DNA of 63,979 bases, the filler included, from Reticulomyxa filosa (lineage: Eukaryota; Protista; Foraminifera): NCBI GenBank assembly GCA_000512085.1. It is 24 parts of 24 records of this genome, joined end to end, with 100 filler letters (N's around TTAATTAATTAA, not from the genome) between each part and the next. Parts side by side here need not be neighbours in the genome. Positions count along the whole stretch, not along the records: positions 6,987 to 8,594 come from ASPP01016960.1; 23 more parts are not named here. One strand, given 5' to 3'. Every line of letters starts with the position of its first letter. The first letter of the stretch is position 1. This document shows positions 6,842-51,759 of the stretch, in pieces. A program made the translations under genes and the position numbers. The notes below the pieces were generated by a model. The model searched no databases and had not been told where the DNA came from. It worked only from the letters and a program-made list of their open reading frames with translations.

Positions 6842-7101
6842 CTATATACATTTCCATTCATCAAAAAAAAAAAAAAAAAAAAAAAANNNNNNNNNNNNNN
6901 NNNNNNNNNNNNNNNNNNNNNNNNNNNNNNTTAATTAATTAANNNNNNNNNNNNNNNNNNNNNNNNNNNNNNNNNNNNNNNNNNNNGGGGGAGGGATAAC
7001 AACAACAAACAAACAAAAAAAATAAATAAATAAATAAATAAAAAATAAAAAATAAAAAAAATTTTAAAAAAATGTGTAATGCGTGTATGTGATATGAATA
7101 G

Positions 7102-7412
7102 GAACACAACTATTTGGCGGGACCGATATTTGGGATTCGCGAAGACTTTGAAGGATTTGGGATTTGCTTTGATACGTATGATAACGACGGCTCGCGAGAC
7201 AACCCGCGCATATTTGTGATAAAAAATGAACAGGGCAACATGACAAGCAAATGGGACCACGACCACGATTTTCAACAAAATCTCATCCGCGAAAAACCCG
7301 AAAAAGATTTGATGCACGATTGCACATGTGATTACCGACTCAAAGAACTTGTCAAAGCTATTTTCACTTATCGCAAAGGAATTGTTATGTATTACATTTT
7401 ATTAATATATAC

Positions 7413-7443
<31 letters not shown>

Positions 7444-8201
7444 TTTTGTCATTTTATTACTTGTTATTTTGTTTGTTAACACATGTGAATGGGGGGGAAC
7501 AGCTTCATGTGTACGTCGACACAGGGAAAGGATATAAGTCTTGCTTGACAATTCAAATTGGTATGAACACAAAGGGCATGCATTTCGCAGTGAGTGCATT
7601 GACTGGACAAGTGGCGGACACTCACGACATCTTTGTCATCACTTCACACTACTTAACCGACAAAGATGCCTACGTTGATGACAAAAGACTATCCCAATAT
7701 CGCGATAATACCGATTTCTCCTTTGCTCGCTTCTTCTTTTATTTTTGGCAGTTTTTGATTTGTTGCGTTTCATTGTATCCATTATATTCCGAATTCAGCT
7801 ACTTTCAACAGCTCAAATCCAATCAGGTATTTTTTTTTTTTTTTTTGCTGCTTTTCAAAGCGTATGAAATGCATGCAATGTAAATTGCACAATCCATAGA
7901 TACATCCCGCTTTGCTGTGTCAGTCTTTAAATCCGGTATTGATTGGTGGACATGCTCTTCATTTGTTCCAATTCATTTTACTTGTCATTGGATATCGATG
8001 GGGCTTGTTCATGCTTCATCTGCCAATCTGTTGTGGAGGGGATATCTTTTCATGACTGACACATATCGGCTGGAGCCTCTTCGAGTTAGGAAATCAGAAG
8101 CTACTCTCATTGACATTGGGGAGGTGCCTGGTTTGGTGTTTCGAACTATTGTCATTTGCATTACACTCTTCATTTCTTTGGGAAGAATGTTTTCCTTTTA
8201 G
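7102..8201 (+). CDS. L-type (VIP36/ERGIC-53-like) lectin with C-terminal cornichon-like membrane domain (5' partial)
   Basis: Lectin motifs GPIFG..DFEGFGICFDTYDND and FAVSALTGQVADTHDI. Exons 7102-7383, 7503-7826, 7900-8201, with a 1-nt frameshift near 8025. Confidence 0.8.
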
Positions 8202-9336
8202 AACGCGCACATAGCTAGTCTCCCTCCTTCTCCCTTCAAAAATAGTTTTTTATTTTTTTTGAAAATGATAATCACAAACAATCCATAACATGTCATTGGC
8301 TGTTTGAAATGGAGCTTGTTTCTTCATGCATCCCACTCTGTGTTAACACTTGATGCTGATTTTAATCTACGTACTGTTTTGACTTCATTATGGACTTTCA
8401 GTGTTCTGCATACTACAGACGAACACTCAGTTTCAATTTTAAAAAAAAAAAACTGTCATCCTTTTGATGTATGCATATGCTTATAAAGAAAAACCGTAAA
8501 AATACAAAAAAACAAGCGATCCATGCAATTTTGCCCCAAAAAATTTAAATACAAAAGTTGTTCGACCAACATTTCAAAAAAAAAAAAAAAAAAANNNNNN
8601 NNNNNNNNNNNNNNNNNNNNNNNNNNNNNNNNNNNNNNTTAATTAATTAANNNNNNNNNNNNNNNNNNNNNNNNNNNNNNNNNNNNNNNNNNNNGCTGTT
8701 ATAAGACTGCATTTCTCTGAAAAAGTTCGCGAACACTCAGTGGGGCACTGATCTTTTTTTAAAAAATATGCATTGAAACATAGTGTATTGAAATTTTCGC
8801 AGTTTTTTTATGTAAATTGCAATTCTCTCTTGTTTCTTTTGCAAAAACTTCCCTTTTTCATCAGAAGTAGATTATCATAAACTTTTTTAATTTCAATAGT
8901 AAAAAAAAATTAGAAGTCTACTCGAAAATGATTTTATGAGAGTCCGTATTTTGTTTTATTTGTTAATTTTGTATCAGACCATCTTTGAGCTATTTTTTTG
9001 CAATTTTCTTTTTAGTAGACACTAGTATTGTTGATTCAAATGCTTTTTTGTGGCTATCAGACAAAAAAAATTTCACGATCGATCAATTTATATTACTTTT
9101 TAAAAATGTGATATGTATTTTATATACAATTGCTCCTCTTTGATCGTATTTATAAACTCAAAAATGGGACATAATAACTGGGTATATAAATGAAAGACGC
9201 CACTTTCAAAAAGACATAAAAAAAAGTTTTGAGGTTAAAGATCCACAAATTACACCTTAAAACAAAAACATATTTCGTATCCAGTAAATAAGCAAACCAA
9301 GCAAATAATAATAATAAAAAATAATATAAGCGCTCA

Positions 9337-10147: not shown

Positions 10148-11629
10148 TTATGGTTTAATTTCTAAAGCAAATCTGAATATGTATGTATATAATATAACAT
10201 TGATAGTACTTTCCAAAATCAATAAGCGGGCAATAATAGAAAATATTTTTTCCATTTTAAGTAAATGATCATTGACAACCTTTTGAAAAAGTCCATCACA
10301 ACTCCAAATGTCGATATCATCCCATTTCACATCATTACAATTCATGATCTTATCTTTTTGTAATTCTTTCAATTTAATTTGCATGTCTTGCATTTCATTC
10401 ATCATATGCTTCCATTCTTTCGATGTGATTTTCGCTTTTTGATCGTGTTCCATGTCTTCCAATTCTTTTGGAAGAGCAAATGGCTGTTCCAATTTCATCT
10501 TCACGAGTTCAAATTTCAATGCTCGAATTTCCTCCGACTGTTCTTTGATCATTTGTAGCAATTCAGACTTTTCCAAAAACTCTTCCATTTTCACGGACAA
10601 ATGGAATCTTTGTTCTTCGCCTTCTTTATTCAGCCCACCGAGAAGATGAATCATGTAATTATCCTGATGATTTAAAATGGCAAAGGAGCAATTGATTTCC
10701 AGTGGCAAGCTAAGTTTGCACGGACTCCAAGTTTTGTCTCTCATGGTAAACTTCCACACACTCTTGGACCGTTCGTTGGTAATGCTATTTCTCCCTCCAA
10801 ACAAAAATAGCGTGTCATGACAATGGACATGAGAATAGCAGGTAAAATCCTGCAAAGCGGTGCAAATTGGTACTTTTTCATATTCAAATGCCTTTTTCTC
10901 CTCGTCGAATTTGATCAATAGCCCAGTGTTGTAACAAAACAATAAAAAATGATTGGCTATTTTTTCATTGTTCATTGTCCATGGTATAAAACAATGATAT
11001 CCAATTCCAAATTGATGCTCTTCTGTTGGCAGTATTTTATTTTTCAAATTGGTTATGTATTTCAGTGTCTTCAAATCCAATACTTCAATACTTTTTGGGA
11101 AGCATGTAATGAACAATAGATCATTGTTTATTCCACCAACCACTCCACGTGCTCCAATCATTATGTGTTCCAACTGTCCTATGTTCGAATGCTTCAGCAA
11201 TATCCATGTATTTACTGCTGACAAGTTTTTTTCTTTTGCTTCTGATTTGCATTCGTCTTCGCTCCAAACACTTTTGTATTTCATTTGAAATATCAAATTT
11301 TGCTCATTTTTACCTTGTCCTCCAAAGGATAATAAATACATCTCGTTCGTATTCGTTTGCTGGTGATTCCATTGCAGAACGCAATGTCCATTCAATTGGA
11401 TATTACTTGGATAAGAACAAATGTATTTATATTCTTTTTTCACTGTATGATAGGAATAACATTCATTGTTTCCGTCACCTCCACAGATCAGGATCTCGTC
11501 TTTAAACAAGATGCATTGAGTGTTTGTTAAGGTTTTTGGCAATTCTGGCAAGGTTTGAAAGCCATTTCGTCTTGACGACATAAACATGTTGCTCAAGAAC
11601 ATGTCAATTGAAGATGTTGCTGACATCAA
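10148..11629 (-). CDS. Kelch-type beta-propeller plus coiled-coil protein
   Basis: FQTLPELPKTL..QCILFKDEILICGG, LLSFGG, LFLFGG and IHLLGG Kelch blades followed by a heptad-rich segment. Confidence 0.85.
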   Translation of the reverse strand: MMSATSSIDMFLSNMFMSSRRNGFQTLPELPKTLTNTQCILFKDEILICGGDGNNECYSYHTVKKEYKYICSYPSNIQLNGHCVLQWNHQQTNTNEMYLLSFGGQGKNEQNLIFQMKYKSVWSEDECKSEAKEKNLSAVNTWILLKHSNIGQLEHIMIGARGVVGGINNDLLFITCFPKSIEVLDLKTLKYITNLKNKILPTEEHQFGIGYHCFIPWTMNNEKIANHFLLFCYNTGLLIKFDEEKKAFEYEKVPICTALQDFTCYSHVHCHDTLFLFGGRNSITNERSKSVWKFTMRDKTWSPCKLSLPLEINCSFAILNHQDNYMIHLLGGLNKEGEEQRFHLSVKMEEFLEKSELLQMIKEQSEEIRALKFELVKMKLEQPFALPKELEDMEHDQKAKITSKEWKHMMNEMQDMQIKLKELQKDKIMNCNDVKWDDIDIWSCDGLFQKVVNDHLLKMEKIFSIIARLLILESTINVILYTYIFRFALEIKP

Positions 11630-13117
11630 TCGTGATGAACACGATTGAAAATTTTTTTCTGAAAATATATCTCCTTTTTAAACCATTTTCTCGTTCATAA
11701 CACAAGTTTGTTATAAAATATGTCTGTTTTTAGTTTTCAAAATATGCAAATATCAGAATTTTTTAGCTTTAGTTGAAAATAGCTAGCATCAAATTCTAAA
11801 AAATTAGTAGCAGAACTTTTTTTTTATTATAGGAGCCACAAAAAGATTGCTCTAAAATGTCATGGTGAGAACACAAAAAAATCAAAAAGCAGCTTAGCCG
11901 AGCAAACTCAATAGTCAACAACAAGCGCGAAAATTCAACCGTACCTTTGAAGGATTCACAAAACAAACAAGACATTCCTTAACTCAAAACAAAAACAACG
12001 AAGTGACACAGCAGCTTGCTTTTGCGTGCGTCCTCGTTTCCTCTGTTGGATCCTAAATGTCGCACTGCACATCCCAACAAAACGGAAAAAAAAAAAAATC
12101 AAACAAAACAAAAAAAACAATTCATCATTTTTTGTGGAATTTTTTGGAAAAGCCTTTGTATTATCTTTGGTCTTTTCTCTTTTTCAGGTATTTCAATCAA
12201 ATAAGTGATCCACTTTGTATCAAGAATGTGCCCATATTTGTTGTAGTTGCTGTTCAGTGTGGTCCCCTTCATTCCAAAGTATTACAATAATTTGCCAACA
12301 ACTTCAAACCATAGCGTCTCCATCAAATTTTGTCATAACAAAGAGTTGTGTTTTTTAAATTAAGCCCAAATCTTCACACAAACAGAGCAAGAAAAACACA
12401 AAAAAATTAGTGATTCACACATGCTCATCTGACCAAACAACAAGGCAAAAAAACTTGACAAATAGGAATATGTAAAAGTAATAAAAATTGGAGACAAAAA
12501 AAAAACAAAAATATGTTTTTGTTTGCGGTTTGTGCAATACATCAATTAGATGATTTCACAAAAGAAACTTGCAAAACTAACAAACAAAGAAAAACACACA
12601 CAAATCGAATAAAAGTAAGGCAAAACAACAACCAAGTTAAAAGTGTGGAAAGAGGCAAGATTATATCCTCTTTGATAAAAACACAAGATTAAATCTATAA
12701 CTTTGACCAAAAACACAAAACAAAACAAAACAAAAAAATTTTAAAAAAAAAAATAAAATGAATTTCTTTTGCTTATTGAGAGAAAACAAACTTTTATTTT
12801 TTCTCCTGTTTAACGATAAAAATATAAAGTTTTGATGACGCTCTCTGTAGGCGATGTTTGTGAACACTGTTGTTCGTGTGTTGTGTGTATTTTTTTCATT
12901 TGTGTTTTGTATAATCACACGCTTCCAAGCAAGCTCTACTTTTGGTACTGACACACGTGTTTATCGTAGCGCTTTTTTTATTTTTTATTTTCCCTTTCTT
13001 ATCTTTCGTTTTTTTTCTTCACCCCTTATTTGGGGGTTTGTTGCTTCTTGTTATCGTTGCGAATTCTTATACATATATATGTGTATGTGCATATGATACA
13101 AAGCCAAAATTTCAACA

Positions 13118-48065: not shown

Positions 48066-49928
48066 CTAGACAATTTTGTCTTCCAAAAACTCTCGCATGC
48101 GCTTAGCATAAAAGTCAGGGGGCACAGCACTGATCGTTTTGGGATCATGTTTCAGTGAAACAGTGAAGTGTTCAAGTTTTTTTCTGCGATTATATTTTTG
48201 CAAAATGTCGATTAAGCCACAAAAATAGATTTCATTGCCTTTGTTACCATGTTCATCCTCCCAGCACATACCACCATATTCACTAGTGAATGGGTTTTGT
48301 GATTGCAATTCCTTCTCTTCCATTTCCTCTTCGCCAAGCTCTTGGCTCAGAGACTGTACAATAGATTTCTCCGTGTTGTCCCCATTCGTTTCTGTACTAT
48401 TACGCGAGTGTGATTCAAATCGACTCTCGGTCTTTGCATTAGTTGTGCTAGTGCTGTTGTCGATGATTGTGCGTACTCCATTATCCGCATTTTCGCGGTT
48501 GTCTGAAGCCGCATTATTATTATTGGCGTCCCCTGTGGCATTATTGGGTTCATTTGCGGCTTTGTTCGAGCCAATTCCCGACAGCAGCTGCAGCCCAAAC
48601 TCGGAAGGGGTGGTCTTTTTATACAATTTTGGTCGTTTCACTTTGACAAAACTAGTAGGTCCATTAGTGTTATTGGAAGCATTACCGTTGACTTCGTCTT
48701 TGTCCGCTATCAATCCTCCACCTCCGCCGTCCACGACCTCCTCGTTTTCGGGGATGGTCCTGATGTCAGATGGATGAAAGTACTCATCCGGATCATCTGG
48801 CGGATATTGGTTTTTTTCATTGTCTTCATCAGCTGCTTCTTTTTTTGTCTCCGCTTCCAATGTACCGTCTTCTTTTGGTAATGACTTAGTATTGTCTTTG
48901 GCCAAGTTGTCCGTTGGCACTTCTTTTTCTTTGTCCTTTTCTTTTTCTTTTTCCTTTTCCTTTTTCTTTTTCTTTTTCCTTTTCTTTTTTCGGCTTCTTC
49001 ATTCTCCAACAAATCTCGACGGCAAATGCCCACTAACAACGAGTAATCCATTATTTTCATTTGTCGTAAGAACTTTTTTTTAATTTGTTTGTTTTATTTA
49101 TTTTACATTAAAAAAAAAAAAATTAATTGATTGGTGATGAATAGGAAATGAAAATCAACTTCAGTATCTCTCCGCAATTGCTCTTTGAACAACTTGGCTT
49201 TAATAGGTCCGACTTGTATTAATTGCCCGTTATCAAGAAAGTCCAAATCTTTCAAAATTGCACCGACTTCTTTATCTTTTACTGTTGCTTTTCTGCCTTT
49301 TGTTGAGCCCTTTGTTTTTTTTTTGTTTTTTGTTTTGCTAAATTCAACCACTTCAGACAACAATATGTCAGTATACGTGTACACACCCACATGGCAATTT
49401 TTTTTTTAAACCCCCCTTTTTTTTTTAATTAAAAAAAAAAATATATACAATAACTTTAAGATCATATTGTACATGGATAGGCAATTTGGTATAAAAAACA
49501 GACCCCATGATGAGAATGTAGATGGGAGATCTTCCATGAACGGTAATACGATGCATGCCAAAAAATTTGGTGACTAAAGTGTGGGGTTGTCTGGACACAT
49601 ATTTGAAGTAATGTGGCAAGATTTTCGGAGAAATAAAGACTCGCTGTGTGTCATCGTTTTGATTAAAAATTGCTTGTTGTGACTAAAGAAAAAAAATTGT
49701 CCTGATTTGCTATTGCTCAAGAATTCTAAGAAGTTGAAATCACCTGTGACCGTCACTAAATACTCTGCTGCATTGATCCCAAACCACTCACGCAACTGGC
49801 GAAATATCTCCGGGCAATAGTCCTTAAATCGAAAGTCACGCATTGCATGGGCTGGTGTATGCTCTGTTCCTTTGTGAGGAAACGTAAACTTTAATGCTCT
49901 TTGAAAGTCTGATTCCAACTCTTCGTCG

Positions 49929-49930
<2 letters not shown>
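48066..49930 (-). CDS. Phosphatidylinositol-phosphate 5-kinase family (5' partial)
   Basis: FRFKDYCPEIFRQLREWFGI, SKSGQFFFFS, FLIKT, YDLKGSTKGR, LKDLDF, IMDYSLLVGI, GLIDILQKY, ISAVPP.FYAKR. Confidence 0.95.
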
Positions 49931-49963
<33 letters not shown>

Positions 49964-50617: not shown

Positions 50618-50828
50618 AGGCGTCTCCAGCATTTCCAAGACCAGCTGCCTTCGGTCGCAGAACTCCGGCACTCATGCAACTGCAGAAGTCGGCCATTTCT
50701 GCTGAGTGGGAAATTCAGGCGAAATTCGGGCAAGCCGAGGCGATTGTATCCTTTGTATTAGCAACCCATTGGCGATTCAGGACGTTTGTCCAGTAGCTGA
50801 TCGCAACCAATTCACCGGGGCCGTCCAA

Positions 50829-51212
50829 ATGACTCGCAACCAGCTGAATGCCGGTCTCGCGCTGGGTAGCGTGTTTCTCATGGCAGGCATCGTGGTCCTC
50901 GCGCCGCCAGTTCCGCCGGCTTCGGCCCAGAGCCAGGCCGACCGGATTTGCCGCGAGCAGGGCATTACCGCGAAAACCGAAGGCTACGAATATTGCCTAT
51001 CCCAGGCCACGCGCGCGATTGAATGGGGCAAGCCGGAGATCGCCTACACGATGGCGCGGGTAACCGCCGACGCTCGCGATTCCTGCCTTGAATCCGGCCT
51101 GTCTCCGGCCACGTCCGGCTACAAGAACTGCATGGAACGCGAGACGCACGCCCGCAGTCTGCTCGTGTTCACCGACGAGCCGCAATACGACCGGGACATC
51201 GCTCGGCAGTAG
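50829..51212 (+). CDS. Secreted hypothetical protein with duplicated CxxxG..GYxxC motif
   Basis: Signal peptide ending ASA; ICREQG..EGYEYCL and SCLESG..SGYKNCM. Confidence 0.75.
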   Translation: MTRNQLNAGLALGSVFLMAGIVVLAPPVPPASAQSQADRICREQGITAKTEGYEYCLSQATRAIEWGKPEIAYTMARVTADARDSCLESGLSPATSGYKNCMERETHARSLLVFTDEPQYDRDIARQ

Positions 51213-51215
51213 GCG

Positions 51216-51759
51216 TCACCGGTCGTCCTGCGGATAAAGCGCCTCGTACTCGCCTTCGATATCTCCGAACACCGTCCAGAAAGCGGGCGGCGTTCGCCCA
51301 TGGGCGCGCTCGACGAGAATAGCGAGATGAGTGTGCCACCCGCCTGAGGTCATGATCATTGCCGCACGGTCGGGAAGACGACGGTGAGTCAGGATGAGGC
51401 GCACCTTCTCGCCCTCCGCAAACAGTTCGAACGTCACGTCCGAGTCACCCCAGGAGATCGAGAGCAAGCGCGGCGGGTCGATCCGCAGCACGCGCTCGTG
51501 CGCGATATGGCCCTTTTCGTCCATGTCCCTGAATCGCTCCGGCGGCGGCGCCTTGTCGGGCGACAGGTCGCGATGCCGGAAGCGTAGTTCGACCGCGCCG
51601 CCGGGCTCCAACGCCAGGGGTCCGCTGGCGAGCCATTGGCCGCGTTTTCGGAATCGACGAGGAATTCCCACACCGTTTCGATCGGCCGGGAAGCAGCCGC
51701 TCGAAGCGAACTTCGGCGGGAGCCACGAGGCGGCCGTGGTTCTTGCCCGCGGTGGTCAT
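51216..51759 (-). CDS. SRPBCC/AHSA1-family protein (frameshifted near 51680-51695)
   Basis: VRFERLLPG-PIETVWEFL..WLA.G..RVLRIDPPRLLSISW..VTFEL..LILTHRRL..GGWHTHL. Confidence 0.85.

Follow-up and report, generated by a model that had tools for sequence, protein, structure and literature searches.

Receptors that read glycans (ERGIC-53/VIP36) and receptors that read membrane helices (Erv14/cornichon) are treated as separate routes of export from the endoplasmic reticulum (ER); both parent families are described as ER export receptors in PMC5166505. On the lectin side, the mannose and calcium contacts of ERGIC-53 are placed at D121, F/Y154, N156 and G251-G252-L253 and in loops 155-161 and 176-185 in PMC3912170, which also assigns the tolerance of terminal glucose to the position occupied by Gly252 in ERGIC-53 and by Asp261 in VIP36. 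On the cornichon side, Erv14 is presented in PMC13640594 as a protein with four transmembrane segments (TM) and both termini in the lumen, the lumenal C-terminus being given also in a further source (PMC10022740). Yeast and animals keep the two receptors separate; in many Rhizaria, a single chain likely merges them. We describe here such a chain from Reticulomyxa filosa, a monothalamid foraminiferan belonging to Rhizaria, encoded within a window of 63,979 nucleotides, filler included.

Judged by its sequence, the fusion is a new architecture built from two families and conforms to the full definition of neither parent. With ERGIC-53/LMAN1, VIP36/LMAN2 and VIPL (Emp46/47 in yeast), the fused proteins share the L-type lectin fold on the lumenal side (Z=30.1 and 29.1), the calcium loop, the mannose-contact residues and, probably, a hydrophobic leader at the N-terminus. 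Unlike these lectins, they lack the single membrane helix, the coiled-coil stalk and the cytosolic KKxx/FF tail; in their place, a short, acidic linker leads to a cornichon domain of four helices, the end of which is predicted to lie on the lumenal side, and their lectins form a branch of their own. With Erv14, cornichon and CNIH1-4, they share the four-helix fold, sequence homology over the whole domain and the core NP..LC..LN, H55, W68, N74 and P76. They differ from Erv14/CNIH in carrying a lectin of ~250 residues on the lumenal N-terminus, in the absence of conservation at F18, acidic site 1 and IFRTL, and in a TM3-TM4 loop that is longer and basic.

Gene structure of the Reticulomyxa filosa locus

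The three exons listed in Table 1 encode the C-terminal 302 residues of the protein, in which an ERGIC-53/VIP36-type lectin runs straight into a four-helix cornichon domain. The contig (6987-8594; 1608 bases) does not reach the signal-peptide exon(s) at the 5′ end of the gene or the first ~90 positions of the lectin profile; ahead of 7102, contigs of a close relative show 188-255+ differing letters. The first-pass annotation had proposed a lectin-cornichon fusion at this locus, and the proposal is upheld by the spliced contigs of the relative, dozens of two-domain homologues, sequence matches to Erv14 and CNIH1, and fold matches. The reading frames it quoted are present as given (translation and Pfam scan of the pieces); its layout stands at the 7826/7900 junction and is amended by a further, upstream intron, which makes three exons, and the gap it left between LEPLRV and FRTIV is the TM3-TM4 loop. 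An intron between these two strings is ruled out, as the relative's contig over 7952-8212 has a single gap and the alignment with the Elphidium protein is continuous.

Table 1. Features of the lectin-cornichon locus and the spacers of the window
Feature	Position	Strand	Description
Spacers N44-TTAATTAATTAA-N44 (22 in window)	e.g. 6887-6986, 8595-8694		join short contigs that are not genomic neighbours
Upstream intron, 3′ end	6987-7101	+	spacer Ns end at 6986; AG at 7100-7101
Exon A, 94 codons	7102-7383	+	middle of L-type lectin domain; calcium/sugar loops FDTYDNDGSRDNP and WDHDHDF
Intron, GT..AG, phase 0	7384-7502	+	joint to 7503 in the relative's runs X3 and X5
Exon B, 108 codons	7503-7826	+	lectin end, linker, cornichon TM1, TM1-TM2 loop
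Intron, GT..AG, phase 0	7827-7899	+	GT at 7827, AG at 7899; joint between Q and I
Exon C, first part	7900-8028	+	TM2 about 7906-7992; start of TM3 with conserved proline (LHLP)
One-base deficit	8028-8029	+	frame broken in the assembly; unshifted reading stops at 8053-8055
Exon C, second part	8031-8201	+	rest of TM3, basic TM3-TM4 loop, TM4 about 8124-8192, stop TAG at 8199-8201

Exon A matches the Pfam family Lectin_leg-like (PF03388) with E=5.3e-10 and 39.5 bits (cut-off 24), and ERGIC-53 with E=1.7e-8. Exon B is one open frame that holds the end of the lectin with TGQVAD, to about 7649, then an acidic linker and TM1 (about 7722-7814), with no Met past the lectin; it matches Lectin_leg-like at profile positions 185-226 (E=6.2e-4), and its frame stays open into FFYFWQFLICCV...KSNQ. 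Six pieces of the window were scanned against Pfam, one of which matched Cornichon: the piece 7900-8052 alone reaches E=1.2e-4 and 22.8 bits, below the gathering score of 29.2 because only 43 residues can be scanned in one frame. The first part of exon C has Erv14 as its best PDB match (E=0.086) and scores 25.6 bits on the family profile; the tail alone (8025-8198) gives no Pfam match, and the second part of exon C scores 19.1 bits on the family's cornichon profile and ends without a KKxx tail. By hydropathy, four hydrophobic stretches are found in the 302-residue model (exons joined by their coordinates, with an X at the break), in line with the earlier remark that no single TM with a KK tail follows the lectin.

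The only near-identical protein in the databases is the deposited Reticulomyxa filosa 'lectin, partial', of 208 residues; in word-index protein searches with single exons, this model alone matched (1 of 27 and 1 of 15 candidates). It uses an acceptor at 7538, later than 7503, and so loses 12 residues that the family profile fills; further on, it reads into the second intron and stops at 7881-7883, which leaves it without the cornichon exon. Homologous models P0002, P0073, P0017, P0213 and P0007 also end after cornichon TM1, and two of them, P0002 and P0073, enter a T-rich intron at the codon position matching 7827 of the window, which suggests a conserved intron and a common annotation error behind the ends of these two sequences. 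Several deposited gene models, that of Reticulomyxa filosa included, are cut at the same intron, and the cornichon domain is hidden in them.

Continuity of the chain and the break at position 8028

Five of six sequencing runs were compared with the window; none of the six is recorded as RNA, and none contains half of the sampled words. Runs X3 and X5 include contigs of a close relative that are 90-95% alike to the window, and the first intron is removed in both. A contig of X3 joins 7826 to 7900: its record 4 matches 7695-7819 and 7898-7946, aligned in such a way that the 73 bases of the intron, no more and no fewer, drop out (record position 134 corresponding to 7826). A 1402-base contig of X4 contains all of exon B ungapped, with 685 bases before it and 393 after; the 393 bases of X4 and the 403 bases of X5 lying beyond exon B are consistent with exon C in length only. 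Runs X1 and X2, labelled synthetic, copy the splice of the deposited model exactly and were excluded as non-independent.

The deposited model ends after one helix, as do P0213, P0002, P0017 and P0073, a pattern that also fits two adjacent genes, or an assembly chimera, mimicking a fusion. This explanation is extremely improbable, as neither a stop nor a Met lies between lectin and cornichon, the X4 contig spans exon B and its flanks on both sides, full-length fusions are found in transcriptomes and genomes of 12 named organisms, and the cluster of P0213 includes a fused form of 447 residues (P0237). The first-pass annotation had allowed for there being no cornichon match or for a lectin ending before the exon at 7900; neither is the case.

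It had also called for one base to be restored at about 8025. A change of frame is indeed needed there, and the relative places its site a little further on: over 7952-8212, the X3 contig differs from the window by 15 letters and by one extra base behind 8028, and the family profile also switches frame at 8028. The evidence for this restoring base is a single contig of X3, at a depth of 4.3, from a relative with about 93% identity, and not reads of Reticulomyxa filosa itself; past the break, 4 of the 8 listed differences to the relative replace a residue (read by hand). On the family profile, the window model with an X at the break scores 292.5 bits in one domain (profile 125-430), versus 265.9 for the unshifted reading and 176.3 for the deposited model; against the Elphidium protein, it is 40% identical across 283 residues, and the alignment passes through the break ungapped. 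Third codon positions account for 15 of 23 listed differences to the relative in exon A and for 24 of 33 in exon B; ahead of the break in exon C they account for 3 of 3, and beyond it for 3 of 8. Read by hand, the linker and TM1 show 2 altered codons against 12 synonymous changes.

The break at 8028 is likely an assembly or sequencing error. Alternatively, with the family being real, the copy in Reticulomyxa filosa might be a pseudogene or broken allele, with a frame that closes at 8053-8055 ahead of TM4, in keeping with the base missing near 8028 in the assembly. Such a loss is improbable: the tail is free of stops for 56 codons, ends where the other family members end and shows no further break in the alignment, 4 of its 8 listed differences to the relative are silent (read by hand), and the frame would be restored just as well by doubling a base next to the break, a kind of error common in assemblies.

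The fused family and its origin

A phmmer search with the deposited model against 1.84 billion representatives returned 301 matches at E<=0.001, of which the best 150 were used. Among these best 150 of 301, both Pfam domains are present in 37 of 149 homologues, the Cornichon domain following the lectin domain in 34 of the first 74 (E<=0.05; 24 above the cut-off) and in 3 of the next 75 (E<=0.001; 2 above the cut-off); 26 of the 149 exceed the Cornichon gathering score, intact homologues reaching 85.2 bits. A profile of 38 fused members retrieved 88 proteins, 66 of which carry both domains in precomputed annotation, a share biased towards fusions by construction since the profile was made from fused members. 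Full-length fused members measure 420-489 residues (n=56), and a hydrophobic N-terminal stretch is found in 52 of the 56 by a crude 10-mer test. In the ESM Atlas (clusters of 50 or more), the search gave lectin clusters only.

Of 30 proteins queried for their source, 14 have an organism label. Fused members are found in the foraminifera Nonionella stella (two proteins), Ammonia sp., Bolivina argentea and Elphidium margaritaceum, and further in Cercozoa sp. M6MM, Lapot gusevi, Leptophrys vorax, Plasmodiophora brassicae (cluster member P0237), Bigelowiella natans, Amorphochlora amoebiformis, Paulinella micropora and Ploeotia vitrea; a lectin fragment of Rosalina clusters with a full-length fusion. 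The named members thus come from four groups, namely foraminifera, Endomyxa, Aquavolonida and Cercozoa, with a single record from a euglenid in addition. All named members are Rhizaria except the euglenid, Ploeotia; no radiolarian is among the named members. One record, P0131, joins a zinc-dehydrogenase fragment to a lectin tail and cornichon and is probably a chimeric assembly.

In a tree of the lectin domain, all 91 fused rows fall on one side of a branch with a support of 100, and 51 of 52 unfused rows fall on the other; the remaining 'unfused' row inside the fused branch, P0007, is a model cut shortly after TM1. This tree derives from 185 length-filtered rows, with 42 short or cut rows left out and 10 near-duplicates or copies of the deposited model skipped beforehand, and its outgroup consists of the lectins that the query found. 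Two smaller trees, of 61 lectin rows and 41 membrane-part rows, were made from hand-picked subsets with SH-aLRT support. The 61-row IQ-TREE shows the same split between fused and unfused lectins; in it, the lectin of the window falls among foraminifera (86), Plasmodiophora pairs with Leptophrys (96) and Paulinella joins the chlorarachniophytes (98). Ploeotia lies within the Paulinella/chlorarachniophyte group, a placement that suggests contamination or transfer behind this record. In the 41-row membrane-part tree, the foraminiferan, Plasmodiophora-Leptophrys and chlorarachniophyte groups reappear, less well supported and with warnings of long branches, and Ploeotia has no clear position. Two labelled proteins sit away from their expected place, the second Nonionella-labelled protein (P0013) outside the foraminiferan group and the Ploeotia-labelled P0028 inside the cercozoan group; they may be prey or contaminant transcripts, or else a paralogue and a transfer.

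The placement of the fused lectins on one branch with a support of 100 points to one old fusion, which likely arose once, early in Rhizaria. A broader proposal is held tentatively, at less than even odds: a single fusion at the base of Rhizaria would have produced a two-sensor export receptor, capable of reading at once the N-glycan of a client in the lumen and its TM helices in the bilayer, and would be a synapomorphy of the entire supergroup with no counterpart elsewhere. The fusion is a candidate rare genomic character for Rhizaria, where such markers are few; an insertion in polyubiquitin is a known one.

The first-pass annotation knew of no described example of the fusion and missed a family spread across Rhizaria. 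No description was found in the literature searched (titles and abstract openings, with subscription papers and supplements outside its reach). The domain pair is visible in databases through one automatic JGI name, 'Legume-like lectin family/Cornichon protein'; apart from it, database records of the family are named only 'hypothetical' or 'L-type lectin-like domain-containing protein'. The same two-domain chain is present in Plasmodiophora (A0A3P3XZ52), Bigelowiella, Amorphochlora and Paulinella and in foraminiferan transcriptome proteins.

The two halves and a proposed role in export

The family profile matches ERGIC-53 with 2e-43 and VIP36 with 1.4e-40 on the lectin side, and CNIH1 with 1.9e-18 and Erv14 with 4.1e-14 on the membrane side; a single homologous chain, P0015, matches both ERGIC-53 (E=3e-23) and Erv14 (E=1.5e-13). 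The AlphaFold2 model of P0003 (pLDDT 88.5, pTM 0.76) consists of a lectin sandwich followed by helices 296-329, 333-361, 364-382 and 405-427. It aligns with ERGIC-53 (Z=30.1) and with CNIH1 (Z=13.6, rmsd 2.1 over 132 of 142 residues), a designed helical bundle coming close to the latter (12.8). When the membrane-part model is submitted to Foldseek, the nine best rows are all CNIH chains, with a TM-score by target of 0.66-0.82 and E of 2.5e-3 to 0.16, none of them at E<=0.001. The spliced window model scores 73 bits on the family's membrane-part profile.

In the lectin half, equivalents of D152, D155, N156 and D181 are present in 91 of 91 fused members, G251 in 90 of 91 and D121 in 76 of 80; a Tyr stands at 154 in 88 of 91 and a Gln at 252 in 65 of 91. 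The window itself carries D152, Y154, D155, N156, D157, H178, D181, G251, Q252 and V253, with D121 lying outside it. The fused lectins share with VIP36 the Tyr at 154 and mostly hold a Gln where VIP36 has Asp261 and ERGIC-53 has Gly252. Because a Tyr and a side-chain-bearing residue (mostly Gln) occupy the two specificity positions, glycan specificity is probably VIP36-like. A KKxx/KxKxx C-terminal end is found in 0 of 91 fused members versus 18 of 52 unfused lectins.

In the cornichon half, the core is kept (C41 in 66, N45 in 83, H55 in 62 and P76, the proline of the TM3 kink, in 87 of 91 fused members). The sites through which Erv14 contacts clients and coat are not conserved: the column of F18, its anchor for clients, holds G24/A18/Y11/F9 of 91, with a Tyr in the window, and variable or basic residues replace acidic site 1 (D29, E31, D33, Y34, E39), both having been mapped through an ungapped Erv14 alignment whose TM1 register could be a few residues off. 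The acidic DL..DY motif that the first-pass annotation had cited for cornichon is likewise absent from the window protein. The Sec24-binding IFRTL of the TM3-TM4 loop falls in variable columns, with VRKSE in the window; an I[FY]xxL string occurs somewhere in the membrane part of 14 of 91 members, at unmapped positions, and by alignment CNIH1 also lacks IFRTL in this loop. The predicted cytosolic loops are basic (K/R 2.7 and 5.3 versus D/E 1.5 and 1.6) and the linker is acidic, a charge pattern from which the sidedness of the four helices, with both termini in the lumen, is predicted.

With a probability of roughly 0.6, the fused protein would be a cargo receptor for glycoproteins cycling between ER and Golgi. 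The hydrophobic leader would put the lectin in the ER lumen, where it would bind high-mannose N-glycans in a calcium-dependent manner, and cornichon TM1 would serve as the first membrane anchor; as both termini of Erv14 are lumenal, a lumenal lectin can be joined to TM1 with the topology unchanged. The cornichon bundle would take the place of the single helix with its cytosolic tail and may, in addition, pack against membrane helices of the client, its two basic cytosolic loops would recruit the coat through a signal other than IFRTL, and cargo would be released in the Golgi as calcium and pH drop. Since the KKxx-type tail is gone and the C-terminus is predicted to be lumenal, a coat signal would have to be carried by the cornichon loops or supplied by a partner. 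With IFRTL and the other sites unconserved, the link to COPII is one that we infer, and coupling to COPII export is plausible; as CNIH1 also lacks IFRTL, the export model is lowered, not removed. The fusion thereby frames the question of whether a cornichon bundle without IFRTL can drive the export of a lectin.

It is also possible, if rather unlikely, that the cornichon part no longer acts as an adaptor and serves only as a membrane anchor, a thickness sensor or an oligomerisation module, in which case the protein would be a resident quality-control lectin of the ER/Golgi, similar to VIP36/VIPL, or would depend on a separate cornichon or another partner for the coat. The unconserved F18, acidic site 1 and IFRTL, the VIP36-like specificity positions and the faster evolution of the membrane part (median end branch 0.77 versus 0.41 for the lectin) all fit this reading; however, four helices and the core residues are kept beyond the needs of an anchor, the TM3-TM4 loop of CNIH1 does without IFRTL as well, and single electrostatic sites of Erv14 are dispensable according to PMC13640594. 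Quite improbable is a role as an escort or auxiliary subunit that would stay attached to a glycosylated transporter or channel all the way to the cell surface, in the manner of CNIH2/3 with AMPA receptors; its lectin would then sit on the glycan of the partner or face outward as a surface lectin. The missing KKxx retrieval signal (0/91) would suit it, an auxiliary role of cornichons is noted in PMC13640594, and the best fold matches are CNIH chains bound to AMPA receptors, but these matches reflect which structures have been solved, the sequence is closer to Erv14/CNIH1 than to CNIH2/3, and the lectin is of the early-secretory-pathway type.

Returning to the cargo receptor, retention of the fusion in foraminifera, Endomyxa and Cercozoa suggests that both receptor types can act on the same cargo or vesicle; if the two-sensor reading is true, it hints that L-type lectins and cornichons cooperate also where they are separate.

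Elsewhere in the window, a 509-residue open frame at 10148-11677 (minus strand) holds what we take to be kelch-like repeats followed by a coiled-coil-like stretch, and an open frame at 49574-49963 (minus strand) with an FRFKDYCP...SKSG motif presumably resembles a fragment of a phosphatidylinositol-phosphate kinase. The contig at 50064-51832 has a GC content of about 0.58 versus about 0.33 elsewhere, carries intron-free, bacterial-looking open reading frames (50706-51212, plus strand; 51216-51755, minus strand) and is probably derived from a contaminant or an associated bacterium.
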